A DNA stretch of 64,000 nt from a virus (IMGVR_UViG_3300033074_001674:32001-96000); one strand, 5' to 3'; positions 16,957-62,828 are shown, counted from the stretch's first letter. Program-made: numbers and translations. The notes: generated from the sequence alone by a model not told the origin.

Positions 16957-17459
16957 TGAGCTATTTTCCTAACTAAAAAGTGCGTGATTGGCAATGTTGT
17001 ACTGAAAAAATTGGCCCCTCCGGGATAATTTCCTTCTCCAATACATCCGGTTGCGCCAGTCGTGCTGTGCCAAATTGTTGGATAAACTGTATCTCCGGGA
17101 GATAATTTGACTAACGCAAAAACATTCGCGGCCCAAGGGCCGGAGTTGTCGCTGCTAATTCTCATGCAATCAGAGCTTAATATTCTGTAATAATTACCTG
17201 CTGAGTTTGCATGCACCAATTTAACTTCCATTTTATCATCAGATGTAAAAGGCGCACCAAACCCCAACTGTGTGCAAAAATTTATTAGATAGTATCCTTC
17301 TCCATCATCTGGGATTAAACATCCAGTTACAGATGCAGAGTATAGCCCGCCATCATCTCTAATTAGGTCCCTTGACGTATTCCAATGTACAAGCCCAGAT
17401 TGATTAGCGGCAAAGCTTTGCCATTCGTGTTTTTGCATATAAAGACAATGTTTAGCCAT
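16953..17459 (-). CDS. C1q/TNF-like domain protein
   Basis: VHWN..DDGGLY..IPDDGEGYYLI..VKLSPGDTVYPTIWH. Confidence 0.6.
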   Translation of the reverse strand: MAKHCLYMQKHEWQSFAANQSGLVHWNTSRDLIRDDGGLYSASVTGCLIPDDGEGYYLINFCTQLGFGAPFTSDDKMEVKLVHANSAGNYYRILSSDCMRISSDNSGPWAANVFALVKLSPGDTVYPTIWHSTTGATGCIGEGNYPGGANFFSTTLPITHFLVRKIAQ

Positions 17460-19137
17460 CGCTTAATGCCTCATATGAAGCAACAATTTGCGTAGGGCTA
17501 TAATTCATTAGACTAAACATATATGTAACACCAGACCCGAGTGTGGCTGGCCTACTGCCCAACCATTTGATTGACGAATCAAAGGTGACGCCAACGGTGC
17601 CAACCGCTGTAACGAATAGCTGCTTCTCGCTTGATAGGTAGCTTAAGTTATAAGGAGTAAACAATCCAGTTGTCGAAACTGAGAAAGTTTGCACCTTCGC
17701 ACCTTGCATATCTATGCGTAGGTCGCCAGAAATTGAGCCAGAAGAGGCTATCTGGCAAGCAGTATTGCTAAGCAGTAGCTGTGCTGGAGATTTTGTCTCT
17801 GGGTTAAACAAAGCAAGCTTTGTGTACGAGCCAGAAGGCAAAATACCGATACTAGCTACTGAGAAAGCCGCTGGATGGGTCGCAGAATCTGCAGACCAAC
17901 AAATGCCGGCATCTCCATTTAATTTTATTGATTCATAATTAATGTTGTTTGTAATTGAGAAATCATTGCTGTAATATGTGATTCCTCCAGCCTTGGCCAG
18001 GACGCTAGCAGCCCTAACAACTGAAGTATTAACATCTCGTATATATATATCTCTGCAAGAAATATCTGCTCCTCCATTAATACCGCTAACTGCAAGGGCA
18101 TTTCCATTTCCAGATGGGCCAATTATTAATTCTGGACCAAGACGAATTAGGCTAGGACCTATACCTCCGCCATCTCTAAGAATAAGAGCGCCATTAAGGT
18201 CTGAAGCCAACATAGTTCCACTAGCAGTTTCGGCTCCAATAACCAATCCTGTAGGATAAATTGTAGAAGACGAGCCGCCGCCACCTGTTATATTATGCGT
18301 TCCAAGAACTGTTAGGTCTCCAACAGTCAGACTAGCTGGACCACTTGTTGATGGATTTGTTAGGGCCAGCGAGCCAACCCCAGAGCGGACAATCGCAGAA
18401 TCCAAGTCTGTCGGCGCAAAACTAGACATATCCTCGACAGATGACCACATTAGGCTCAATCCGGAGCCAAACAGCAGCCCTCCTCTACCTGCTTCCTCTC
18501 CCCAATATCTATTGGGAGTAAGGACATATCTATATGTAGAATCAATTAGCGCGACATTTCTAGATGAGCTGCCAATACTCACTTCCCCTGAGGTAACTGC
18601 CATAGCGAGCTGATTATTAATTGAAATATCAACTTCATTTCCATCAAATGGCGCCCTAATATATCTTACTTTGATGCTGCTATCTGATGCTGACGCGCTT
18701 CCATGACCAACAATTATCAATGAGCCATTCTCATCAGAGCGCAACTCTACTCCGCTAAGCACTGGAGACGTTGGGCCAAGCAAAATTCCAGTAGAGGATA
18801 CAGACGTAGATGCTCCGCCAGTAATATTGTGGCTACCAAGAACAGTTAGGTCACCGACAGTTAGGTTGGCTGGACCACTTGTAATTGGATTAGTTAATGC
18901 TAGAGAGCTAACGCCAGACCGACCAATAATGATATCTGGCAATCCACCTGGATTACTATTGGAGGAGAAGCGAATAAAGGCCCCAGAAGCCATAGCTAAA
19001 ACATCGCCGTCATCAACCAGAATGCCAGATGCAGAGCCAGTCCTGTCTCCAGCGCCCAAAGTTGATTGCAACGTATCAATTACGTTGCCGCCTCCGCCGC
19101 CTGCGCTTGGTGATACTGGTCCAACTATACTACTCAT
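17452..19137 (-). CDS. tail-fibre-like protein with internal repeats
   Basis: 561 aa, G/S-rich; repeated RSGVxSLALTNPxTSGPAxLTVGDLTVLGxHNITGG; C-terminal VTFDSSIKWLG-type domain. Confidence 0.65.
   Translation of the reverse strand: MSSIVGPVSPSAGGGGGNVIDTLQSTLGAGDRTGSASGILVDDGDVLAMASGAFIRFSSNSNPGGLPDIIIGRSGVSSLALTNPITSGPANLTVGDLTVLGSHNITGGASTSVSSTGILLGPTSPVLSGVELRSDENGSLIIVGHGSASASDSSIKVRYIRAPFDGNEVDISINNQLAMAVTSGEVSIGSSSRNVALIDSTYRYVLTPNRYWGEEAGRGGLLFGSGLSLMWSSVEDMSSFAPTDLDSAIVRSGVGSLALTNPSTSGPASLTVGDLTVLGTHNITGGGGSSSTIYPTGLVIGAETASGTMLASDLNGALILRDGGGIGPSLIRLGPELIIGPSGNGNALAVSGINGGADISCRDIYIRDVNTSVVRAASVLAKAGGITYYSNDFSITNNINYESIKLNGDAGICWSADSATHPAAFSVASIGILPSGSYTKLALFNPETKSPAQLLLSNTACQIASSGSISGDLRIDMQGAKVQTFSVSTTGLFTPYNLSYLSSEKQLFVTAVGTVGVTFDSSIKWLGSRPATLGSGVTYMFSLMNYSPTQIVASYEALSDG
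18281..18921 (-). repeat. intragenic duplicated module of ~107 bp (copies at ~18815-18921 and ~18281-18388)
   Basis: Near-identical 36-aa segments within the tail-fibre-like ORF. Confidence 0.8.
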
Positions 19138-19941: not shown

Positions 19942-20447
19942 TACTCGCTATTGGCCTTTCTCTCGACAACTTCATCAGTCACAGACTGACCCTCTACAAC
20001 CTTATTGCCTGTATGGCGTATGGCCAATTGTGGCACGTTCGGAACTAGATAGTCAGGGACCACAGCATCGGTCTGATTATCGCCGAGGTCCACAATCACA
20101 GCCCGAGAAGCGGCGGCATTATCAGCATCGCTTGGCACGCGGTCCACTATATTGGTGCGGGCCATCATTGTGACGCCCCAAACCAAATTCTCATGATATT
20201 CTACAGTATTGTCATCCTTGACAATCGAGCCAGACCCTATGGCGCGGTCATCCTCTCGAACAACCTTGCCGCCAACAGTGTCATTTGTGGCGTATGTTTC
20301 TGTAATTAAAACAGGCCGCTTCCTAAATGTTATGGAAGTCTTTGGTACTACAGGTGTTAATGTTCCAGATAAAGAACCCATTAGGCAGGCCATCCTTTCG
20401 CCACCAGGTAAAGAACTGGTATTATTCCAGAACCTATAATTACCCAC
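19941..20447 (-). CDS. putative virion protein
   Basis: V/T/D-rich; translationally coupled. Confidence 0.5.
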   Translation of the reverse strand: MGNYRFWNNTSSLPGGERMACLMGSLSGTLTPVVPKTSITFRKRPVLITETYATNDTVGGKVVREDDRAIGSGSIVKDDNTVEYHENLVWGVTMMARTNIVDRVPSDADNAAASRAVIVDLGDNQTDAVVPDYLVPNVPQLAIRHTGNKVVEGQSVTDEVVERKANSE

Positions 20448-20674
20448 TGGACGCGTATTGATGTTATAAGTTCAGACAACTTAGATGTTATCTTAGATTC
20501 GGACTCGGCAACCCTCTTGTCCGCTCCACCAATTTTAGACACCATATCTTTCATAAGGTGAGTCTGTGCAGCCATTTCTAAGCGGACGCCCTGTAATTGA
20601 TGCGTGTTTTCCCTAAGAGCGTCTATATGCGCTTGGGCTAGAAGCTCTTGGGTATTGCTAGTTGCTGGAGGCAT
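20381..20674 (-). CDS. coiled-coil protein with C-terminal TM (holin-like architecture)
   Basis: Heptads followed by VQWVIIGSGIIPVLYLV. Confidence 0.45.
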   Translation of the reverse strand: MPPATSNTQELLAQAHIDALRENTHQLQGVRLEMAAQTHLMKDMVSKIGGADKRVAESESKITSKLSELITSIRVQWVIIGSGIIPVLYLVAKGWPA

Positions 20675-20678
20675 TTAA

Positions 20679-21122
20679 CTAGCTCTTGCGATATCTCAGG
20701 CCAACCCGTGCATTAACTTCATAATCAGTAACGCCAGGGCTTAGCGCAGAGCTTACCGAATAATGAACCTGTAGAACATCTCCACTAGCAAGTGCAACCT
20801 CGCTATTATCTTCGGTATGCCAGAACTTGCTAGCTACAGCGGGCACGGCACTGTTAAGTACGCCGCTATGGACTAGCGCACCATTCTGGTGAAGTGCAAC
20901 GGAGAGCGTTCCGGCAGTTAGCGCAGGGCTAACATTTACCACCATAAAATCCAGGAGCCCATTTTCAGGAGTCACGAATCTATTGGTGCCAGCAGCAGTC
21001 GCGGCAGTAGAGTGCCCAACTACGCCAGAAAGTGAGCCGACGCCTACACTCAGGACATCATAGCCTCTAACGGCTGGCTTGCCAAGTAGTTCTTTATTAC
21101 GACGCTTATACTCTTTGCCCAT
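20679..21122 (-). CDS. putative virion beta-sandwich protein
   Basis: GGAGG RBS before ATG 21122; ...LASGDVLQVHY. Confidence 0.55.
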   Translation of the reverse strand: MGKEYKRRNKELLGKPAVRGYDVLSVGVGSLSGVVGHSTAATAAGTNRFVTPENGLLDFMVVNVSPALTAGTLSVALHQNGALVHSGVLNSAVPAVASKFWHTEDNSEVALASGDVLQVHYSVSSALSPGVTDYEVNARVGLRYRKS

Positions 21123-21172
21123 TGATTCCTCCAGCAACGATTTCTGCAAAAGCAGAACTGCAATGTTTTACG

Positions 21173-21189
21173 CTGCTAGAATAATACAC
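21173..21189 (-). promoter_or_regulatory. candidate late-promoter motif GTGTAT-N4-CTAGCAG
   Basis: Intergenic, at the head of the structural block. Confidence 0.4.
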
Positions 21190-21205
21190 CAGAGGAGTCA
21201 ATTAG

Positions 21206-21634
21206 CTACCAGCCAAGCATCACCTTAAACGCACGTTCAAGGGCCAACTTTAGCAAAACCGCTTCATCCCACGATATAGGGAGAGAAACGGCTACGGGCT
21301 GACCACCACCCTCCTGGGCCGAGGCTCTAAGATAATATCCATTATCTTGCGCAGCAACCTTTACAATTTTATTACCTTTCTCATTCTTATGGAAAAGCTC
21401 TAGAGCAGGGCCGCCAGCTAGCAGCAAAAGGAACTTGCCAATATCTGCCTGGCCTAATTTTACAATTATCTTAGAATCCCAATCATAAGGGCGAACATCA
21501 TCTTTAGGCCTAATCTGATTGGCTAATTCTAGGAAAACACAGTCCTTTTTAGACCCGAGCTGAAATTGTGCGGCTGAGCCGGTGCCCTTTGAATTGGCCT
21601 TATAAATACAAAATGCTTCATGATACTTCGCCAT
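21206..21634 (-). CDS. Whirly-like single-stranded DNA-binding protein
   Basis: FCIYK, VFLELA, VRPYDWDSKIIVKLGQADIG, LELFH, VSLPISWDEAVLL are collinear with plant Whirly domain motifs (recalled, not searched). Confidence 0.65.
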   Translation of the reverse strand: MAKYHEAFCIYKANSKGTGSAAQFQLGSKKDCVFLELANQIRPKDDVRPYDWDSKIIVKLGQADIGKFLLLLAGGPALELFHKNEKGNKIVKVAAQDNGYYLRASAQEGGGQPVAVSLPISWDEAVLLKLALERAFKVMLGW

Positions 21635-21816
21635 TACTTAAACTTCGCTTTCACACAAGGACAAATTACTTTCTTTCCATATGCAAAGATTCCATCACTA
21701 ATTGATGGTTGCCAATAGAAAGTTCCAGTGCCATTGCACTGTTTGCAGTTCTTTTTAGGCTTAGCTACCGCCTTTTTGGATTCTTGTAGCTTTTCCTGAC
21801 CTTTAAAAATCTTCAC
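21634..21816 (-). CDS. small Zn-finger protein
   Basis: CKQCNGTG...CPC. Confidence 0.55.
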   Translation of the reverse strand: MKIFKGQEKLQESKKAVAKPKKNCKQCNGTGTFYWQPSISDGIFAYGKKVICPCVKAKFK

Positions 21817-22406
21817 TACTTCTTCCCCTTGGCCGCAGCCCCGGCCTTCTTGTTTAGATGTGTAATAAGTGCGATTCCGTCATCCATTGACAGTGACTTA
21901 ATTGGCACTTCCTTACCTATTACATCTCTAATTAGGTCTGCCTCAGAAATGCCAAGCTTTTCACGCAAATGACATATTAGCATTTCCTGGTGTGCTCCGA
22001 TTTTAGATACAGGGGCACTCACAAAATCCTCCAGGGCCGCACCCTTTTCTTCAACAGAGCACAGGCTTATATTAAATGCCGCTCTTAATGCGCGAGCCTT
22101 TGCTCTACTCTCTGCTATAGCAGTTAAAAACTTGCCGAAATCTCCCTTGCAAGATTCAATTGTGGCGTCTGCGCTGCCCTCATATGTGCCATCCTCGAAA
22201 TGATATGTATAAGTGCACATTACTCCATAAAAGTTGTTTCCAGCAGACATTGGGACAGGCCTGGACGCAGTCCCTTTTAATCCTCTATCTCTGGCAAGCT
22301 TCTCTAGTCCACGCAGGTAAATAAACTTTTTATCACCCTCGACCTTAATATCTTCCTCTGCAACATCCTGAATATAATCATATGTTGGGTCAAATTTCTT
22401 GGACAT
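21816..22406 (-). CDS. putative single-strand annealing protein (Rad52/RecT-like)
   Basis: IYLRGLEKLA...YEGSADA...AIAESRAKARALRAAFNI. Confidence 0.6.
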   Translation of the reverse strand: MSKKFDPTYDYIQDVAEEDIKVEGDKKFIYLRGLEKLARDRGLKGTASRPVPMSAGNNFYGVMCTYTYHFEDGTYEGSADATIESCKGDFGKFLTAIAESRAKARALRAAFNISLCSVEEKGAALEDFVSAPVSKIGAHQEMLICHLREKLGISEADLIRDVIGKEVPIKSLSMDDGIALITHLNKKAGAAAKGKK

Positions 22407-23013
22407 TCTTAACTCCTATTAAATCCCTTATATCTCCGTAATAACACATCTGATTTTCCGGTCGATTTAACGACTCATCATTGCCTAATGCATACCAGCC
22501 AGGCCATTGTTGGCGCGCAAACATTTCTAATTTCTTAACTGGAGAACCTTCCTCTTCGACTATTCTCTCTATATATTTATAGAGTTCGTCAGGTTTTCTA
22601 GAATGACCTCTGACCAACGCATCGAATTCCTGCTCCACATTTTGTGCATATCTCTTAGGGTTGCCAATTTTCCCCGCCAACACCGGCTCAACTGAGCCCT
22701 GCGAGCAGCATCGACCATAAGATTTGGCCTTTTTGCCATTCTTTGTTCTCTTAGTCCAGTAAAATGCCACAGTCTTATATGTGAAACCCCATGCCTCCAT
22801 CAGTTCTATGGCATTCTTAATTTCGGCATTGGCGGCCCACATAAATAGCCAGCAATTCTTGTTGCAAATAGATTTAACATCTAGCCTTTTCATATCAGAT
22901 AGTTTTAGTGTTGGATATTGATATTGAACGGCTAATGAATATTTGCCGAAGTATGCTGCCTCGAACCCCCAAGGAGGGTCGGCAAGCAATACATCAAATT
23001 TCTCTTTAATCAT
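22390..23013 (-). CDS. MT-A70 family N6-adenine methyltransferase
   Basis: ADPPW, LFMW, AWGFTYKT, HSRKPDE, LEMFAR, GW..LGN. Confidence 0.9.
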   Translation of the reverse strand: MIKEKFDVLLADPPWGFEAAYFGKYSLAVQYQYPTLKLSDMKRLDVKSICNKNCWLFMWAANAEIKNAIELMEAWGFTYKTVAFYWTKRTKNGKKAKSYGRCCSQGSVEPVLAGKIGNPKRYAQNVEQEFDALVRGHSRKPDELYKYIERIVEEEGSPVKKLEMFARQQWPGWYALGNDESLNRPENQMCYYGDIRDLIGVKNVQEI

Positions 23014-23399
23014 TAACGCCGCCTCTTAAAGAATAGAACTAAGTTATCTTCTTCATGTTCCAGTTGAGATGTGTATATTTTCCCTCTAAATCTTACTGAG
23101 GCGCCATCATTTGTAACATCTTCCAATTTAAATACATACATATCCAAATTGGAGACTTGCTCAAAAGTCGCTGTTTCGAAATCTATAATCGCGCCACTAT
23201 TCTTATCTATTAGATAAAGCTTATCTGACCAGATTATCTTATCATTAAGGATTATGCTTTCACGATTTTTGTCATCATTTGACTGTACAAAACCAGTTGC
23301 CTTTAAATTATCATACCACTGTTTTGGCTCTTCTTCTTGGCCATAGGCCGCCATACAAAACATTGATATGGCTAAAAGACTAGAATAAAAAAATCTCAT
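23013..23399 (-). CDS. exported hypothetical protein
   Basis: Signal peptide MRFFYSSLLAISMFCMAAYG. Confidence 0.5.
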   Translation of the reverse strand: MRFFYSSLLAISMFCMAAYGQEEEPKQWYDNLKATGFVQSNDDKNRESIILNDKIIWSDKLYLIDKNSGAIIDFETATFEQVSNLDMYVFKLEDVTNDGASVRFRGKIYTSQLEHEEDNLVLFFKRRR

Positions 23400-23400
23400 A

Positions 23401-23973
23401 TTAATCATCCCCATGTAATTTCCCACGCTCATAAAATGATGTTAAATAAGCGTCCTGCATATCTGATGCATGAACTATAAGGGCCTCAGGCGTAGCGGGC
23501 TCTACTGGAGAATGCCATTCGAGCCTGCCATGATGGGCTAAAATACAATGTCCAAAGTTAAGCTTTTGCTCATCGCTTATATCATAATTTTCTATATATG
23601 ACATAAGTAGATGATAACCAATAGGAATATGATGATGTAGCATATTAGCACGATTCTTAACAAATTTGTCCCCATTTGGCTCATAACACAGCATTTTGCC
23701 TACATCATGCAACAATGCAGCAGCAACAGTAACATTCATATCCACATTAGGATAAAGTAAACAAGTTTGTCCAGCCAATCTGGCGGTGAGCACACTGTGG
23801 TCGAACAGTCCGCCCTTATATGAGTGATGCTTATTGCATGAGGCAGGCCATGTTGTAAACTTTTCGTAATGCTCGTTCAAGAAATCTATTGCAAAATCAG
23901 CCCACTTATTCGAGAGCCACATCTTGGCCCATTGTTCGAATTCTTCTGGTTTAATTATATTCGGATTCTTCAA
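23401..23973 (-). CDS. HD-domain protein, YhaM/Cbf1-like 3'-5' exonuclease
   Basis: PAS..HHSYKGGLFDHS, LLHDVGK, HCILAHHG..EW.SP..P.TPEA..VH..D. Confidence 0.85.
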   Translation of the reverse strand: MKNPNIIKPEEFEQWAKMWLSNKWADFAIDFLNEHYEKFTTWPASCNKHHSYKGGLFDHSVLTARLAGQTCLLYPNVDMNVTVAAALLHDVGKMLCYEPNGDKFVKNRANMLHHHIPIGYHLLMSYIENYDISDEQKLNFGHCILAHHGRLEWHSPVEPATPEALIVHASDMQDAYLTSFYERGKLHGDD

Positions 23974-24157
23974 CTTCGGCTATCCTTTCAATGGTCCCTG
24001 CAAGCCCCTTGCCTATTTTCTCGCAGAATTTGCCAAATTCATTAACAGTCATAACTATATCGCCATCTATAGATAGTTCGCTCTTTTTAATGCCTTTAAA
24101 CACTTCGCGCCTAAAAACTCTTAATAGAGTGCCCAAATTAATACGCACTTTTGTCAC
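23951..24157 (-). CDS. hypothetical protein
   Basis: GTGA overlap with the upstream gene. Confidence 0.5.
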   Translation of the reverse strand: MTKVRINLGTLLRVFRREVFKGIKKSELSIDGDIVMTVNEFGKFCEKIGKGLAGTIERIAEVEESEYN

Positions 24158-24945
24158 TTTGCCTCTACAATATGTAACGTGTTATGCGGCCCATTCTTTA
24201 AAATCATCAGTATAGCATCAACTGTTCTAGTACAAAAAGCCCTAGAATATCCACTGCTCATATCCCTACATCTAATTACAGTCCATCCTGCGCTAATTAA
24301 AAGGTCATCTTTCCGCGCATCCTTTTCTTGAACAACGGCCAATCTTTCCTCTCCATAAATAGGAAGGAAGTGCGTTGCTCCATCCCACTCTATTGCCATT
24401 TTGTGGTCTGGCAGCGCGATGTCAATTTCAAATTGACCACCTGGAGTATATTCTTTGGAGCGCTGAACCACATTGAATCCTTGCTCTTCAAGTAAAGCGG
24501 CCACGGCATTTTCACTTTTGCTGCCCTTACCAGATGAGTTTGCGCTAGCGAGATGCATTCGCTTAATTATTTCATTACGTTCCTTTTCAGAAAGTCCATC
24601 CCATTGGTCTTTGGCGAGTTTGGCCAATTTCTTCCGCAAGTTCTCTGCGCGCTTATTCTTCTTATCTGAATCTGCATGCCAGAAGTGGTGCAGGCCCAAA
24701 GAAATTTTCTCCTTTTCCTCCTCGGTCCTAGACCTCCCCTCCATTGGGTGGCCATTCCTATTCAGGTTAATCTTTTGCGCATCGCTCTTTGAGCGGGGCT
24801 GGATTCCCTGTCGTATTAGTTCTCTTCTTATGGTATTAGGGAATACCCCGTGTTCATCCGCGATATCTGATGTGGAACGCTTTTTAACTACGAATTCCCG
24901 ATAAAGATACTCAGGGTCTTTCCAGGCTCCAAAACTTTTCTTCAT
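24154..24945 (-). CDS. putative homing endonuclease: HTH + NUMOD3-like + DUF559/Vsr-type PD-(D/E)xK
   Basis: HPMEGRSRTEEEKEKIS; SKSE..EIDIALP..AIEWDG..H; KDARKD..L..AGWTVIR. Confidence 0.75.
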   Translation of the reverse strand: MKKSFGAWKDPEYLYREFVVKKRSTSDIADEHGVFPNTIRRELIRQGIQPRSKSDAQKINLNRNGHPMEGRSRTEEEKEKISLGLHHFWHADSDKKNKRAENLRKKLAKLAKDQWDGLSEKERNEIIKRMHLASANSSGKGSKSENAVAALLEEQGFNVVQRSKEYTPGGQFEIDIALPDHKMAIEWDGATHFLPIYGEERLAVVQEKDARKDDLLISAGWTVIRCRDMSSGYSRAFCTRTVDAILMILKNGPHNTLHIVEAK

Positions 24946-34042: not shown

Positions 34043-35947
34043 TTACATCCTCATTCCTGGAAACACAGTTCTTTTATAGAGGTAATTATCCTTAACTATT
34101 GTATCAAATATCTTGCAGTCAAGACCTAAATCTTCCGCCAATTTCATAAGCGCTTTAGAATCCTTTGGAAGACAATTATGAACTGTAAATCCAACAGTAA
34201 CATAACTGTTATCCTCTTCTATTTCTAGGTTAAAGACTTTTCCAGTATATTGAAAAACTTGAACTGATTTAACTGGCGCGATAATACCTTCTCCAAAATT
34301 GAAGGAGGGCGAACGTTCTAGCTTAAGCTCTATATCCTTTTTAGGATAACCAGTTATCTCGCACAGTTTGTAATAGGTTGCCTTATCTCCTAGTTTAATA
34401 TAATAAGCTTTTCGATGATATACATCATCTCTGCCTCTTCTTGGTTGTGATATTTTGGTTGTGTGAGGAAGTCCTAACACATAAAACATTTGCTTAACAG
34501 CATAAAATAAATCTTCAGAAACAGTCGCCAATGTCATTGACCTGGGACCGAAATGACCATCTCCCATTAAATAACCTAAAAGGAATTTTGCAATAATATT
34601 TTTAGGAGATTGTAGTAATGTTGAACTTAATTTTTTAGCCCAAGAATATTTACCACAATGCTCAAACATAATTTTTTTAGCATCTGCGCTAGAAAATCTA
34701 ACTTGACAACCTAAGCCATCTTTGGCAGATAAGTGTGTTGTAACTCCAAATTGTTCTTTTGCAATTCTCTTAATTTCGTTCTGTAAGAATTCTTCCTTTA
34801 TATGCAATGCGAAAGATATTCTATTGCTTATCGCATTATCATCGTTTTCAATACTTCCTTCGGCGGCATACAACCCCAAAAGAAAAGCTATATCTTCATT
34901 AATTTCAGAATCAATATTCAAAGTTTTAAATGTTGGAACAAATACATAATCTCCCTTGTTGATATTTGAAGCATTTGTCCAATTTAAAGCTATTTTATCT
35001 ATTTTAGCATTCTGAAATTTAAGTTTACCATTTGTCGTGCTATAAAATCTATTTGTAGATTGCGAATAAACTGGATGCTCGCCAGTTAAATAAATTTCAT
35101 CCCCACCTTGGGGTTTAATACCATAAACCCGCTCATTTTTAACTGTTCTTACTAAAACATCAGTTACTTTTCGTAGTGCTCCGGTATGGCTGTAAACCTC
35201 ATCTCCAATATTAATTTGGTCAATTCTCTTAACCCCATCTTTAGTATAAATTAGAGTCTCTGGAACCAAACAGTACCCGGCATATCCTCTAAATGATTCA
35301 TTGACATCCAAATAACAATCCACATGAGCTGGCTGTTTAACTACAGCATTCTTTATCTTTGTATAGTTGGCTCCTAACTTCTTACATATTTCATAGAATC
35401 CATTGGCGTAAACAACTCTCATGGCATTGAATACATTATGAAAATATTTTGCCAATTCTGATTCTGTTGGAGTCAACCTGATTATATTCTTTGGATAATT
35501 GCCGTGCGCTTTTACTATTAGGTCAAAAGCGACATCCGAGTGTGTCCCTATTACAAGAATATGGTGCCCTTCGACAAAGTCGTGAAACGAGTGTCTCTCT
35601 CTAAGCCATTCTGGACAATGTGAAATTGACGCAAAAGGATTAACGCTTTCATCTATTAGAGATTGCGTAAAACCAGGGGTCGTAGTACTTTTTATTACTA
35701 TATGACCTTTATAACCCAACTTTTCTAAATCTTTAACGCATTGACAAACAATTGACGTGTCACATTCTCCATCATTTTTTGATGGGGTAGGAACACATAT
35801 AAAAATTAACGAAGCTGGCAACAGGTTATCTATTCTTGACCCTTCAATGACTATATCGTGCTCGAGAATTTCATGGCCCAATTTTGAGAAGCCGTATTTA
35901 AGAGCCTCACCTAATATACCTCGACTTCCACAGATGCCTATTTTCAT
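34043..35947 (-). CDS. UDP-glucose/GDP-mannose dehydrogenase family protein interrupted by an intein
   Basis: GSRGILG, FICVPTP, IKST, PEWLRE, SELAKYFHN, GYAGY|intein|CLPKD. Confidence 0.9.
   Translation of the reverse strand: MKIGICGSRGILGEALKYGFSKLGHEILEHDIVIEGSRIDNLLPASLIFICVPTPSKNDGECDTSIVCQCVKDLEKLGYKGHIVIKSTTTPGFTQSLIDESVNPFASISHCPEWLRERHSFHDFVEGHHILVIGTHSDVAFDLIVKAHGNYPKNIIRLTPTESELAKYFHNVFNAMRVVYANGFYEICKKLGANYTKIKNAVVKQPAHVDCYLDVNESFRGYAGYCLVPETLIYTKDGVKRIDQINIGDEVYSHTGALRKVTDVLVRTVKNERVYGIKPQGGDEIYLTGEHPVYSQSTNRFYSTTNGKLKFQNAKIDKIALNWTNASNINKGDYVFVPTFKTLNIDSEINEDIAFLLGLYAAEGSIENDDNAISNRISFALHIKEEFLQNEIKRIAKEQFGVTTHLSAKDGLGCQVRFSSADAKKIMFEHCGKYSWAKKLSSTLLQSPKNIIAKFLLGYLMGDGHFGPRSMTLATVSEDLFYAVKQMFYVLGLPHTTKISQPRRGRDDVYHRKAYYIKLGDKATYYKLCEITGYPKKDIELKLERSPSFNFGEGIIAPVKSVQVFQYTGKVFNLEIEEDNSYVTVGFTVHNCLPKDSKALMKLAEDLGLDCKIFDTIVKDNYLYKRTVFPGMRM
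34175..35272 (-). mobile_element. intein with LAGLIDADG endonuclease (366 aa)
   Basis: Begins CLVPETLI; block B LTGEHP; LLGLYAAEG and FLLGYLMGDG; ends VFNLEIEEDNSYV..TVHN before +1 Cys. Confidence 0.92.
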
Positions 35948-58646: not shown

Positions 58647-60277
58647 ATAACAGGTCCAACTAACAAATTGCTTGAAATTCTAATTGGATTATTCTGATGA
58701 CCCATCATTTGCATGGCGCGTGAGAATCTTATAGATTCAAACCTGTTATGGGCATCTATTTCTCCCTTGAAATAATTCTCAACATCTTCCTTTGACATTC
58801 CTTTGGCCAGTGATGAAGTCCAGTGTTGGAATCCTGCCGGGTCTGGCTCTCGCATCAGAAGAGCTCTATAGCATGTCATTACAAATTGGTCATTTGGAAG
58901 ATTCTTATCTATTGTATAAGGAGGCATAAGCTTGAAATCAGGCAATTTTTCCCATGAGACTTTTCTGTCTAGGATTGCAATATTGTCGATTACATCTTCA
59001 AATGTCTTTCCGACACCTTGCCAGGTATGCATTTTCTCTGCACACGCTCTTGCCCTTTTAGCTAATTCTAATCTTTCTTTCTTCTCGTAAATCATGCGCT
59101 TCATAAGGCCTGCTAGACAATCAACATCAGAGAATGTTCTAACGGCCATAGTTTCTGCTTCTGTGTATCTTCTGTCTATATCTATTGGAAGTGTCCCGCC
59201 ATTCTCAACATGGTCCTCTAGCGCGGAATAATTAGAGCACAAAACTGGCAGTCCACACGCCTTAGCTTCGACAACCGGAACTCCCCACCCCTCACAAATC
59301 GCGACCTGACAGTATACATCCATTAAGTTATAAATTTCTGCCAGCTCACTTTCACTCACTGAGTTATGTGTATTTGGCATATGTGCAGCATGTTGCCCGC
59401 AGAAAATACATTGTCCCATCCCAGCCTGATTACAGGGCAGGAACCATGAAAAAAATACCTTTGTACAGGCATCACATTTGTATGTGAATATTACATGTCT
59501 ATTAAGGGAATTTCTTCTAAGAAGCTCTGGTATATCCCAACCAACGTCTGGATATGAGGTATGACATAGTAGGACGCTATGCTCTACTTCTTTAGAGCCA
59601 GCATATCTTTTCCTTAATAGTGAGAAGGCTTCAAACAGGTCTGAAAATAGCTTTCGCTTTTGATTGCGCATCACTGTTCCAAAAATAAACAGTGACTTAT
59701 TGAGTCCCCAATCATCTCTTAGTTTGATTTTATCCATTGGTCTAAATGTATCTAGGTCAACTCCTGGACTTGTGACTGCTGCAACCTTTAGTCCTTGCGC
59801 ATTTAAGGTTCTTCTTCCAAATCTACTATAAGTAGTGAGTATATCAGCCTTGCTAAAAATCTCATCTACCCATTCCTGCTTTTGGGGAGCAGAATCTACA
59901 GTAGGAGTTAGCAACACCTTATAATTGCCTCTAAATCTAGATTTTACTAGATGAGGCATCATCCATGGGTCTAAAAACGACATTACTATGTCTGGCTGAA
60001 AATCTGCTACCACAGCATCAAATTTATATGCGCCAAATTGATTTATAGGATTAGAATTATAAATTCTTCCCTCTTCGTCATTTAGAGGGAGGACGCCGTA
60101 GAACCGCCAGGGAAGTGCGGCGGCCTGCGGCGCGTCTTGTCTACCATAATTACCCATTTCAGCTATCTCATATTTGCCAGTGGCATAGAGATACTTAATG
60201 ACTTCCCGGTTAAATTTAGCAAAGCCAGTCGCCAACCAACTGGCCTCGCCACAAAATAGTAGACGCTTCTTGCCCAT
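58643..60277 (-). CDS. GT4 glycosyltransferase with Zn-finger insert and C-terminal DUF4214-like domain
   Basis: TGFA, RNQKRK, EGWGVPVVEAKACG; CDAC/CIFC; YRALLMREPDPAG..HW. Confidence 0.88.
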   Translation of the reverse strand: MGKKRLLFCGEASWLATGFAKFNREVIKYLYATGKYEIAEMGNYGRQDAPQAAALPWRFYGVLPLNDEEGRIYNSNPINQFGAYKFDAVVADFQPDIVMSFLDPWMMPHLVKSRFRGNYKVLLTPTVDSAPQKQEWVDEIFSKADILTTYSRFGRRTLNAQGLKVAAVTSPGVDLDTFRPMDKIKLRDDWGLNKSLFIFGTVMRNQKRKLFSDLFEAFSLLRKRYAGSKEVEHSVLLCHTSYPDVGWDIPELLRRNSLNRHVIFTYKCDACTKVFFSWFLPCNQAGMGQCIFCGQHAAHMPNTHNSVSESELAEIYNLMDVYCQVAICEGWGVPVVEAKACGLPVLCSNYSALEDHVENGGTLPIDIDRRYTEAETMAVRTFSDVDCLAGLMKRMIYEKKERLELAKRARACAEKMHTWQGVGKTFEDVIDNIAILDRKVSWEKLPDFKLMPPYTIDKNLPNDQFVMTCYRALLMREPDPAGFQHWTSSLAKGMSKEDVENYFKGEIDAHNRFESIRFSRAMQMMGHQNNPIRISSNLLVGPVI

Positions 60278-60711
60278 TAGAAAGGAAGACCTGCTGCTCT
60301 CTCATTTAGATTGCCGCTATTGCTTCTGCCTCTGCGCGCAGGGGGAGACTGTCGCTCGGTCTGCTCTTGCTCGTCCTTAGATGACTGCTTGCCAGTAAGA
60401 AGAAGATAATCATTTAGAGTTACCTTAATCTTGCTGCGCTTCTTGCCGTCCTGCTCCCACTCATCAGTAGTAAGTCTACCACTGACATAAATAGGAGTTC
60501 CCTTTGCAACGTTGGCCGCCAAAGACTCAGCCAATCTTCCCCAAGCCTCACAGTCAACAAACGTAGCCTGTTCCTGCCACTCGTCATTCTTATCCTTATA
60601 AGAACGAGAACTGGCTACACGAACTGTGGCCACAGTATTACTTCCAACTTGACGAGTCTCAACATCCGCACAAGCTCTGCCAGAAAGACTAACCTGATTT
60701 ATATTACTCAC
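60277..60711 (-). CDS. ssb: single-stranded DNA-binding protein
   Basis: INQVSLSGR, FVDCEAWG..AE, KG..V.GRL...W, C-terminal LPF. Confidence 0.92.
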   Translation of the reverse strand: MSNINQVSLSGRACADVETRQVGSNTVATVRVASSRSYKDKNDEWQEQATFVDCEAWGRLAESLAANVAKGTPIYVSGRLTTDEWEQDGKKRSKIKVTLNDYLLLTGKQSSKDEQEQTERQSPPARRGRSNSGNLNERAAGLPF

Positions 60712-60720
60712 AAAATACTC

Positions 60721-61224
60721 CTAAACATTAACTAAAGTTAAAAACGGTTCTAAAACATCATGTTCCTGCGCTAACAGAATCATATCTTCTGTTAGATTAT
60801 TATTATTTCCCAAATACTTAAGATATAAATGAATTAAACATTTTCTTTTATCTTCATAAATTGGAGTCTGTGCTCCAAGACTCTTTGGATGAAATGAGAT
60901 TATATCTATCATTCTTCCCAACTGGTCAACAAAGACGATATTGTCAGTATCTATCCCATTACTAGACACATAATGACCAATTTCCATTACTATAAATGCT
61001 TCTGCCGCCAATGGATGAACCGGCAATATTATATCATCTCCTATATCTATTCCTTCTGGGCTATCTGACCAACACCACTGCAACTTATCTCCATCATATG
61101 TTAGTGTAACTATACAATTGTCCTCATTAACAACCACAACGCACTTTTTAAGTGGTGCCTTCATCGCAGCCGGCTTGAGCTTACTAATGTCATCATCCAA
61201 ATATTTGCGTATTCTATTATTCAT
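60721..61224 (-). CDS. hypothetical protein
   Basis: ORF coupled to the dnaE fragment. Confidence 0.6.
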   Translation of the reverse strand: MNNRIRKYLDDDISKLKPAAMKAPLKKCVVVVNEDNCIVTLTYDGDKLQWCWSDSPEGIDIGDDIILPVHPLAAEAFIVMEIGHYVSSNGIDTDNIVFVDQLGRMIDIISFHPKSLGAQTPIYEDKRKCLIHLYLKYLGNNNNLTEDMILLAQEHDVLEPFLTLVNV

Positions 61225-62828
61225 ATTGCCTCGATATTATTTACGTGTAAGCTTCCATCTTTTTTTCTCCCGCTAATTAAGACTATGTTTCCTTCCTCCA
61301 AAAACATTGAAACTTTCTGATATGCAGACGCAAAAACTACCACGCCATCTAATAAATATGTGTCATCTCTAATTCTAAGAAACGCCATATAATTGCCATT
61401 TTTATCTTTAAATGCCTTTACTTCTTCAAGGAATGCGGCTATATCACATTTAGATTTGTCTTTAAGTCTTAGAAAATCTCTACAGGAAGTATTGGCCTTT
61501 GGACTACTATACATATCTACTTCATTTCCACTAAATGGCATTCCTAAATAGTGTTTCTCCCAAGCTATGTTGCTGGCTGACCCACTGCCTATCAATTTGC
61601 GCAAATCTTCTATTGCCAGGTTCATTTTCTCTACGCGCTTATCTAAAGGTCTTGGTATTTTTGCTTCTATAAGTGCAGGAATCCAATCATAGACAGATTT
61701 ATCTACATTGCCACTTTTAATCAGCCAGGACCTTTCTCTATCAGTAAGAGAGCATAACATTTTATATCTAGCCAACATTCTGCCGCGACGCTTGTCTATC
61801 GAATCTAATGCCCCACTTTTAATTAGCGCCTCAACAACATCCTTCTTGTATAAGATGTTATTTTCTTCATTAGTTTGCTGACAAAATGAACATTTATCTT
61901 TGGGGTGTTCGAAAATTTTCTCAAATAATTCAGATTCATTAGAAACATCAGATAAATGGTCTAGTCCATTAATCGCTGAATCTCCAATCCCTTTAATATG
62001 ACCTAATCCGAATATTATTGTTTTTTCATCTATAATCGAAAAATCCCTCTTGGAAAATCTAATATCTGGAATATTAACGTCTATATTAAAAAGACGAGCC
62101 TCATATATTAGCTCTTTAACCTCATCTGCCTTATCTATATTCGCATCTCCTCTGGCATGAGTAAGTGCAGATTTAAAAAAATGTGCTGGGAAATGCACTT
62201 TTGCATACGCTGTTTGGTATCCATTAATAGCGTATGATACTGCATGAGACAAATTAAAGCCATAACCAGAAAATTTCTCAATCCACGAAAATACCTCTTC
62301 TGCTATATATTTATCTCTGCCAAGAGCAATGGCACCATCCACAAACTTCTTACGAAGCGAATTCACAACATCTTCCTTCTTTTTGCCAACGCCCTTTCTT
62401 AGGTCATCTGCTTCCTTAAGATTAAAACCAGCAAATATCTCAGCAATTTTCATTAATTGCTCTTGATAGATTGGCACGCTATATGTGTCTTTAAAAATAG
62501 GTTCTAGACAACTGTCAATATATTCTGGCTTTAATATACCATCTCTAACTGCTACATAAGTATCTGAAATAGAGTATTTCTTGCCGCTTTCAATATCTTC
62601 TCTAAAAGTAGCTTTAAGGCAACCTGGCCTAATTAAACTAATTACATCGGCCATTTCTCTAATATTCTTTGGTTTAACGCTTTGACACCATCTCTTGCCA
62701 AGAGACTTTTCTAACTGAAAAACGCCCTTAGTCAGACCAGCAGAAAGAAGCTCATAAACTGCAGGACAATTAAGTGGGATATTATCCCAATCTAATTTAT
62801 CCATTCTACAACCACAACTAAATCTCAT
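61221..62828 (-). CDS. dnaE: DNA polymerase III alpha subunit, C-terminal portion only (fingers, HhH, OB)
   Basis: TKGVFQLE, LIRPG, IYQEQ.M, AD.LRK..GKK, YGFNLSHA..Y, IKGIG, LIKSGALD, EK.YLG, MAF. Confidence 0.9.
   Translation of the reverse strand: MRFSCGCRMDKLDWDNIPLNCPAVYELLSAGLTKGVFQLEKSLGKRWCQSVKPKNIREMADVISLIRPGCLKATFREDIESGKKYSISDTYVAVRDGILKPEYIDSCLEPIFKDTYSVPIYQEQLMKIAEIFAGFNLKEADDLRKGVGKKKEDVVNSLRKKFVDGAIALGRDKYIAEEVFSWIEKFSGYGFNLSHAVSYAINGYQTAYAKVHFPAHFFKSALTHARGDANIDKADEVKELIYEARLFNIDVNIPDIRFSKRDFSIIDEKTIIFGLGHIKGIGDSAINGLDHLSDVSNESELFEKIFEHPKDKCSFCQQTNEENNILYKKDVVEALIKSGALDSIDKRRGRMLARYKMLCSLTDRERSWLIKSGNVDKSVYDWIPALIEAKIPRPLDKRVEKMNLAIEDLRKLIGSGSASNIAWEKHYLGMPFSGNEVDMYSSPKANTSCRDFLRLKDKSKCDIAAFLEEVKAFKDKNGNYMAFLRIRDDTYLLDGVVVFASAYQKVSMFLEEGNIVLISGRKKDGSLHVNNIEAI

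Follow-up and report, generated by a model that had tools for sequence, protein, structure and literature searches.

In a 64,000-nucleotide stretch of viral DNA (IMGVR_UViG_3300033074_001674:32001-96000; hereafter the window), the minus-strand open reading frame (ORF) at 21206-21634 begins with ATG and encodes a 142-residue member of the Whirly family, which is best known from plant organelles. A preliminary description, made from the sequence alone, had named the product a phage-encoded Whirly-like protein and gave no strand. The window represents bases 32001-96000 of an IMG/VR virus contig of 165,893 bp that is ~74% complete according to CheckV. As this record is a virus contig with a large terminase match, the attribute phage-encoded is justified and the virus is assigned to the tailed phages; an HK97-type capsid Pfam family was not found in the record, and the terminase match was used for this call instead. 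A tRNA scan of the window found none, and matching sequence was detected in two public sequencing runs belonging to one study, with no RNA run among those listed. The genes on which the following analysis relies are:

21206-21634, minus strand: Whirly-domain protein, 142 residues (PF08536, family profile, AlphaFold2 model, VIA-align, four-copy model)
21634-21816, minus strand: zinc-ribbon-like protein, 60 residues (CKQCNGTG ... CPC; weak match to DnaJ CXXCXGXG, E 0.0054, below the cut-off)
21816-22406, minus strand: candidate single-strand annealing protein, 196 residues (AlphaFold2 model and structure matches)
22390-23013, minus strand: MT-A70-type DNA adenine methyltransferase, first gene of the overlapping block (PF05063, 95.5 bits)
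23401-23973, minus strand: HD-domain phosphohydrolase, possible nuclease, neighbour of the block (PF01966, 48.3 bits)
60277-60711, minus strand: canonical single-stranded DNA-binding protein (SSB) with oligonucleotide/oligosaccharide-binding (OB) fold, located beside a DnaE fragment in the replication block (PF00436, phrog_44)

The ORF encodes a true Whirly-family protein. Its match to the Pfam Whirly profile PF08536 scores 28.1 bits, above the curated cut-off of 23, with E 2.1e-6, and spans positions 28-134 of the 136 in the profile; in a six-frame search of the phage record the same profile scores 27.1 bits, likewise above the cut-off. When the single protein is compared to PDB sequences using phmmer, only plant Whirly proteins lead the search, namely AtWHY1 (4koo, E 0.0031), potato PBF-2 p24 (1l3a, 0.014) and AtWHY3 (0.024). 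A family profile built from an alignment of 149 collected relatives, 88 of which match PF08536 individually, recovers PBF-2, StWhy2 and AtWHY1-3 from the PDB at E 5.3e-13 to 9.2e-11. The strings quoted in the preliminary description, FCIYK, SAAQF, VFLELA, VRPYDWDSKIIVKLGQADIGKFL, LELFH, KIVKV, GYYL and VSLPISWDEAVLL, are all present in the translation in the same order, and the collinearity with plant Whirly domains that it had claimed, including the YDW signature, is recovered in the phmmer alignments to 4koo and 1l3a, where VRpYDW pairs with VRQYDW, ELFH with EFFH, and mLGW with lIGW or lLGW. The phage protein carries the YDW, (F/L)FH and C-terminal LGW motifs of the family, and among the 149 relatives W52 is nearly invariant and H82 invariant. 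The product consists of the domain alone, without an acidic tail or a C-terminal extension; an organelle transit peptide is also absent, the crystallised plant domain beginning opposite residue 1-3 of the model.

The AlphaFold2 model, computed from the 149-sequence alignment, has a predicted local distance difference test score (pLDDT) of 96.6 and a predicted template modelling score (pTM) of 0.89. Its secondary structure as assigned by DSSP (E7-12, E20-26, E33-40, E56-60, H62-72, E78-83, E87-96, E99-108, E114-120, H122-140) forms two tandem repeats of four strands and a helix within a single chain. The best Foldseek matches of the model are WHY3, WHY2, MRP1, WHY1 and PBF-2, with template modelling (TM) scores of 0.70-0.78, and in VIA-align the plant structures WHY1/2/3 and PBF-2 align with Z 17.3-18.4 at 2.1-2.3 Å root-mean-square deviation (rmsd) over 129-132 residues, with AtWHY2 and AtWHY1 both at Z 18.4 (2.1-2.2 Å, 129-132 residues) and PBF-2 at Z 17.9. 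In conjunction, a four-copy model yields an ipSAE of 0.93, compared to 0.00 for the best of three controls, with at least 97% of contacts in common between runs and a partner pLDDT of at least 90; the predicted tetramer interface is formed by helices 62-75 and 122-142, the same helices as in the plant tetramers. In the calibration of the tool, 20 of 30 proteins solved as pairs attained this score, as did 1 of 23 solved as single chains; these counts apply only roughly to a tetramer because two copies were used there. Since the plant tetramers are solved structures, the result should be read as likeness to them rather than as proof of assembly. Sequence, fold and predicted tetramer agree on the identity put forward in the preliminary description.

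The Whirly fold is also found in RNA-binding proteins, and the phage protein might accordingly act on RNA, in RNA annealing, mRNA handling or translation control, like MRP1/MRP2 of T. brucei or ChmC of chimalliviruses (PhiPA3 gp61, PhiKZ gp67). MRP1 and MRP2 share the Whirly fold and the whirligig tetramer, and differ as a heterotetramer that anneals RNA in kinetoplastid editing; at Z 16.4-16.8 their structures are nearly as close to the model as the plant proteins, with the next fold, PUR-alpha, at Z 8.2, and the family profile reaches MRP1 with E 1.5e-4. ChmC, in turn, is a phage Whirly-fold homotetramer that binds single-stranded nucleic acid and prefers single-stranded RNA (PMC11077065). 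The sequence is, however, nearer to the plant binders of single-stranded DNA (ssDNA), which score 44.7-52 bits with the family profile against 24.4 for MRP1, and the conserved neighbour of the gene has a DNA annealase fold, as described below. ChmC is furthermore characterised by three strands per repeat, a disordered condensate-forming tail, a role in mRNA export from the phage nucleus and no detectable Whirly sequence similarity (PMC11077065). Membership of the ChmC family was considered and rejected, as the repeats of the phage protein have four strands, its second helix ends at residue 140 of 142, no low-confidence tail is present and known ChmC is not among the best 50 viral structure matches. 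On these grounds we regard an RNA-binding role as distinctly unlikely.

Four minus-strand genes whose ends overlap form a block that closes with the Whirly gene, in the order MT-A70, 196-residue protein, zinc-ribbon protein and Whirly. The end of the MT-A70 gene overlaps the start of the 196-residue protein gene by 17 nt, the latter is joined to the zinc-ribbon gene by the junction TAGTG, and in the junction TAATG the TAA stop codon of the zinc-ribbon gene shares one base with the Whirly ATG. A clear AGGAG ribosome-binding site precedes only the ATG of the 196-residue protein gene, an arrangement that fits coupled translation. No PHROGs family was found for the Whirly, zinc-ribbon and 196-residue proteins, or for the 156-residue protein encoded downstream. 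The Whirly gene stands where the genes for DNA modification and recombination give way to a run of unknown genes (14.5-21.1 kb), a position that would suit a transcription or nucleoid factor which binds melted promoter DNA or compacts DNA and so times the switch to the downstream, possibly structural genes. Precedents exist in the first descriptions of potato PBF-2 and in WHY1 of plastid nucleoids, and the Pfam family itself is named 'Whirly transcription factor'. Yet promoter and terminator sites predicted in 20300-24300 were no more numerous than in shuffled sequence, although no search was aimed at operators or repeated sites, and the partner conserved beside the gene is an annealase rather than a polymerase or sigma factor; such a role is therefore very unlikely.

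For the 196-residue protein, sequence searches gave no Pfam or PHROG match, and a family profile compared to the PDB returned nothing significant. The protein was aligned with seven homologs from related loci (8 sequences) and folded using AlphaFold2, resulting in a model with the elements E20-23, E26-29, H31-41, E45-55, E59-70, E73-82 and H94-110. In a VIA-align search of 48,161 chains, the two best matches of residues 131-195 are to the C-terminal domain of Red-beta (8tfu, Z 9.0, rmsd 2.6, 65 aligned; 6m9k, Z 8.9, rmsd 1.8, 61 aligned), with the caution of the tool that helical matches below Z ~13 may reflect a common arrangement. Residues ~1-118 resemble human RAD52 (Z 8.0, rmsd 4.1, 113 aligned), Sak of 80-alpha (7.6), Mgm101 (6.2) and the N-terminal domain of Red-beta (5.9), in agreement with Foldseek, where each of the 18 leading matches listed is a RAD52, Sak or Mgm101 structure, with borderline E values of 1.3e-3 to 1e-2. 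The model thus presents a candidate two-domain single-strand annealing protein, with a RAD52/Sak/Mgm101/Red-beta-like N-terminal domain and a Red-beta-like C-terminal domain. In lambda, the Red-beta C-terminal domain binds Exo and the C-terminal tail of SSB.

The arrangement recurs in other genomes. Homologs of the 196-residue protein are encoded upstream of Whirly in seven loci that were found via Whirly (L002, L003, L004, L005, L006, L008 and L009), whose Whirly proteins are 34-53% identical to that of the window, and in L003, L004 and L006 the annealase gene directly abuts or overlaps the Whirly start. In L002, the closest relative, a zinc-ribbon gene (a 77-residue counterpart) is located between annealase and Whirly as in the window, MT-A70 is kept in the same order, and it is only here that the HD phosphohydrolase is retained. 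A reverse search identified 80 viral loci with this annealase family, 18 of which have a same-strand Whirly gene starting at most 574 nt downstream of the annealase end. In 32 of the 80 (L021-L061 and others) the Whirly slot is filled by a conserved 113-residue protein with two CxxC pairs and weak zinc-ribbon matches, for which no similarity to the 60-residue zinc-ribbon protein of the window was found. In an unrooted maximum-likelihood tree of 42 Whirly sequences, none of them from plants, annealase-linked genes occur on all major branches; the window protein groups with L018 and L002 (91/86), and an archaeal clade belongs to the same starred set (95/94).

Based on the fold, the codon overlaps and the recurring gene order, we propose the following role. 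Since overlapping stop and start codons link its gene to the annealase block, the Whirly protein most likely works in phage DNA recombination, and as it is fixed just after a Rad52/Red-beta-type annealase we favour this over a generic second SSB in replication. Specifically, the protein probably forms a tetramer that binds single strands irrespective of sequence, is made along with the annealase and serves single-strand annealing or recombination-dependent replication of the phage. We infer that it binds nucleic acid, prefers DNA over RNA and is functionally or physically linked to the annealase. A four-bladed homotetramer would form through the two helices, and the outward-facing beta-sheets would bind single-stranded nucleic acid without sequence preference, as in plant WHY2. 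Production together with the annealase encoded two genes upstream is expected, because stop and start codons overlap along MT-A70, annealase, zinc-ribbon and Whirly genes. The tetramer would then coat and protect resected or displaced single strands in a single-strand-annealing pathway, and either pass them on to the annealase or block annealing at the wrong place or at short homologies. It is the latter, restrictive role that has been suggested for Whirly in plant organelles, where the tetramers bind ssDNA and limit spurious annealing (PMC3245945). The ordinary SSB of the replication block would meanwhile serve the replisome.

That SSB was correctly recognised in the preliminary description: the gene at 60277-60711 matches PF00436 (85.9 bits, cut-off 26) and phrog_44 (E 2.7e-35), and its product ends in an SSB-type tip, ...AAGLPF. 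Outside the window the phage encodes, at G000:C1:97924-98745 and 104973-105734, a Cas4-like PD-(D/E)XK nuclease and a homolog of RecA (139 bits); with RecA encoded besides the annealase candidate, the phage has a recombination protein of both types. No member of the YqaJ/lambda-Exo family was found in the ~74% complete record.

Several observations weigh against the proposed recombination role. As many as 62 of the 80 viral loci with the annealase family have no Whirly within 4 kb, and the annealase hence does not need it. Given that SSB, RecA and PD-(D/E)XK nuclease are encoded elsewhere in the phage, it is not evident why a further single-strand binder should be needed. The annealase assignment relies on a shallow alignment of 8 sequences, a model with a pLDDT of 76.8 and middling Z scores, and folds of double-stranded RNA-binding domains reach Z 6-7 on the same N-terminal region. 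The outcome of the four-copy modelling may reflect the model's memory of the solved plant tetramers, and we know of no binding, oligomer or recombination experiment on any phage Whirly. The higher-plant KGKAAL motif is not kept either: the phage protein reads FCIYKANSKGTGSAAQF (IYKANSKG), in which only I-Y-K remains, an equivalence that is our own reading, the profile alignments starting after that region. KGKAAL has been linked to ssDNA binding, with its second lysine needed for assembly of 24-mers, and defines the higher-plant Whirly proteins (PMC9070903, PMC3245945); green algal and Marchantia homologs are also without it (PMC9070903). Finally, a Whirly fold is compatible with a preference for RNA, which is seen in T. 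brucei MRP1/2 and in phage ChmC (PMC11077065).

Some of these points would equally suit a stand-alone second SSB for replication or repair, the annealase being adjacent only through a shared expression class of DNA-metabolism genes. The Whirly fold and family membership are compatible with this, plant Whirly proteins being abundant general ssDNA binders (PMC3245945, PMC9070903), and besides the 62 annealase loci without Whirly there are converse cases, L007 and the archaeal loci L010-L014, where no annealase neighbour was detected beside Whirly. Against it, a canonical SSB is already present in the replication block 39 kb away, the codon overlap ties Whirly to the annealase block, and the order recurs in phages with Whirly proteins only 30-53% identical. 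The preliminary description had seen in the protein a second SSB beside the one at 60277, a role that is plausible but unproven; as an explanation detached from the annealase we consider it unlikely, and retain the proposal of a single-strand binder working with the annealase.

Further features were observed around these genes. A 263-residue protein (24154-24945, minus strand) combines a DUF559/Vsr-like endonuclease domain with matches to HNH-family and homing-endonuclease PHROGs, and has homologs encoded close to Whirly or the annealase in L002, L009 and L007; from the homing-type matches and this distribution, it is probably a mobile homing endonuclease. Within the run of unknown genes, a glycine/serine-rich protein of 561 residues (17452-19137, minus strand) contains an internal duplication, ...SLALTNPxTSGPAxLTVGDLTVLGxHNITGG... 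occurring twice; no Pfam or PHROG family was found for it, and it may be a fibre or other structural protein. The DnaE fragment beside the SSB gene (61221-62828, minus strand) holds only the C-terminal part of the DNA polymerase III alpha subunit, with finger and helix-hairpin-helix matches and a weak OB match. It covers positions 623-1076 of phrog_405, whose profile has 1190 positions, which indicates that DnaE is split or interrupted in this phage; the N-terminal PHP/palm portion was not found among the ORFs scanned. The start of a GT4 glycosyltransferase gene overlaps the SSB stop at 60277 and belongs to a long co-directional run on the minus strand (~26100-60300), whose scanned ORFs also include a GDP-mannose 4,6-dehydratase and a UDP-GlcNAc 2-epimerase. 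Also in this run, at 34043-35947 (minus strand), an intein carrying a LAGLIDADG homing-endonuclease domain splits a UDP-glucose/GDP-mannose dehydrogenase gene, the Hint/Intein_splicing and LAGLIDADG_3 matches falling inside those of the dehydrogenase.

Stand-alone Whirly proteins are widespread. An exhaustive HMMER search of 1.84 billion representatives returned 816 clusters at E ≤1e-3 and 270 at ≤1e-10, and most of the 150 clusters listed have 140-175 residues, i.e. the domain alone; named phage and bacterial proteins of this kind measure 127-159 residues. The best viral structural match is UniProt A0A6J5NR37, a 'Whirly transcription factor [uncultured Caudovirales phage]' of 141 residues (TM 0.70, 28% identical), and in the ESM Atlas clusters named 'Whirly transcription factor domain-containing protein' from Verrucomicrobiota and Uroviricota are retrieved at 0.92-0.93 by features and TM 0.91 by structure. 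Among the genomes sampled from the archaeal phylum that contains the Micrarchaeota (G001-G151), 18 of 151 have a PF08536 match over the cut-off. All proteins of 76-349 residues retrieved by a word-based search were prokaryotic, viral or metagenomic, with no plant Whirly among them, a family-profile search for fused or longer forms (350-2000 residues) found none, which is weak evidence by the tool's own statement, and none of 50,697 deposited phage records was matched by tblastn at E 1e-3. The preliminary description took Whirly proteins to be described mainly from plants and green algae; this stands as regards the plant literature, where reviews call the family plant-specific (PMC9070903, PMC11712025, PMC11359715), while the rarity it implied was overstated, the family being large in phages, bacteria and archaea. 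The window protein is a new but ordinary member, of a branch already named in databases.

Whirly genes in Micrarchaeota metagenome-assembled genomes (L012-L014) were reached via a relative in a neighbourhood of type I restriction and helicase genes, and the L010 copy has a PIF1-WYL helicase and a type I restriction subunit encoded nearby. Whirly-bearing phage-like contigs of 160-185 kb (L008, cluster P0181) are filed in public assemblies as cellular genomes, L008 being contig JAXOUH010049148.1 (184,855 bp) of NCBI GCA_034680565.1, and one protein of these contigs is labelled 'MAG: ... Chloroflexi bacterium'; they are probably mis-binned phage contigs.

The broad presence in archaeal and bacterial chromosomes also bears on the idea of a counter-defence decoy, which would soak up ssDNA or RNA signals or mimic the PC4/Whirly-fold sensors of host Shedu nucleases and so blunt immunity that senses phage recombination intermediates. 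Type 1A Shedu sensors do use an sPC4/Whirly-like fold (bioRxiv 10.1101/2023.08.10.552793), and phage recombinases trigger several defences (PMC11846896). The bacterial Shedu domains are, however, half-repeat dimers, not full Whirly repeat pairs (bioRxiv 10.1101/2023.08.10.552793), no defence or anti-defence family was matched in this analysis, and the chromosomal distribution is better explained by a housekeeping DNA function, making a decoy highly improbable.

Comparison to known systems places the phage protein closest to the plant organellar Whirly proteins (PBF-2 p24/StWHY1, StWHY2, AtWHY1/2/3; PDB 1l3a, 3n1h, 4koo, 4kop, 4koq), with which it shares the Pfam family, the double four-strand and helix fold and the collinear motifs VRxYDW, (D/E)IG, (L/F)FH, PI(S/T)xxE and C-terminal LGW, at 16-25% identity. 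It differs in being encoded by a phage within an overlapping block with an annealase, and in having I-Y-K followed by a short insertion in place of KGKAAL. The PC4-like protein of phage T5 (PDB 4bg7) is an ssDNA binder of the wider PC4-like fold group that has been implicated in recombination-dependent replication (PMC7549692), but it has a single-repeat type II dimerising domain and is not among the structural matches listed. An annealase encoded beside a single-strand binder or nuclease partner is likewise found in lambda Red-beta with Exo and host SSB, in Sak of 80-alpha and in Sak4 with its cognate SSB in HK620. Compared to these modules, the single-strand binder in the window block is a Whirly protein instead of an OB fold, a small zinc-ribbon gene lies in between, and the YqaJ/lambda-Exo-type nuclease was not found in the record. 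In Arabidopsis mitochondria, WHY2 and ODB1 (RAD52-1) similarly bring a Whirly and a Rad52-like protein onto the same ssDNA; on purification of nucleoprotein complexes from the mitochondria, WHY2 is recovered together with ODB1 (Janicka et al. 2012, cited in PMC9070903). There, the two proteins are encoded by unlinked nuclear genes and interact through DNA, and we regard the parallel as suggestive, not as evidence of common descent.

The preliminary description further argued that a phage homolog bears on the origin of Whirly, and the relatives collected here may do so, the tree being one without plant sequences. Organellar T7-like RNA polymerase and the Twinkle helicase descend from phage genes. 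A bolder idea is that the annealase-Whirly pair is a distinct, old phage recombination system with the Whirly tetramer, in place of an OB-fold SSB, as the single-strand partner of the annealase, that the plant Whirly/ODB1 pairing descends from such a phage or prokaryotic module, and that Whirly arose in phages or prokaryotes, was inherited by plants and is not a plant invention; we hold this to be quite unlikely as matters stand.

In conclusion, what is new here is the position of a Whirly gene as the last of an overlapping block with an annealase candidate, and the recurrence of Whirly as the next gene in 18 of 80 loci of that annealase family. The value of the finding is tempered by the ordinary standing of the window copy and by the automatic naming of phage Whirly homologs in public databases; the phage branch is nevertheless unstudied, and no paper on phage or prokaryotic PF08536 members was found in the literature searched. 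The link to the annealase gives the phage Whirly protein a testable function. There is no settled view of how Whirly proteins steer organelle recombination, be it through prevention of spurious annealing or in cooperation with ODB1 and RecA, and the phage block offers a simple test system of few components, Whirly, annealase and a small zinc-ribbon protein, with a direct annealing assay and a recombineering read-out. In addition, the phage Whirly protein is a candidate accessory factor for phage annealase toolkits, and the hundreds of prokaryotic and viral relatives provide outgroup material for the origin of plant Whirly.

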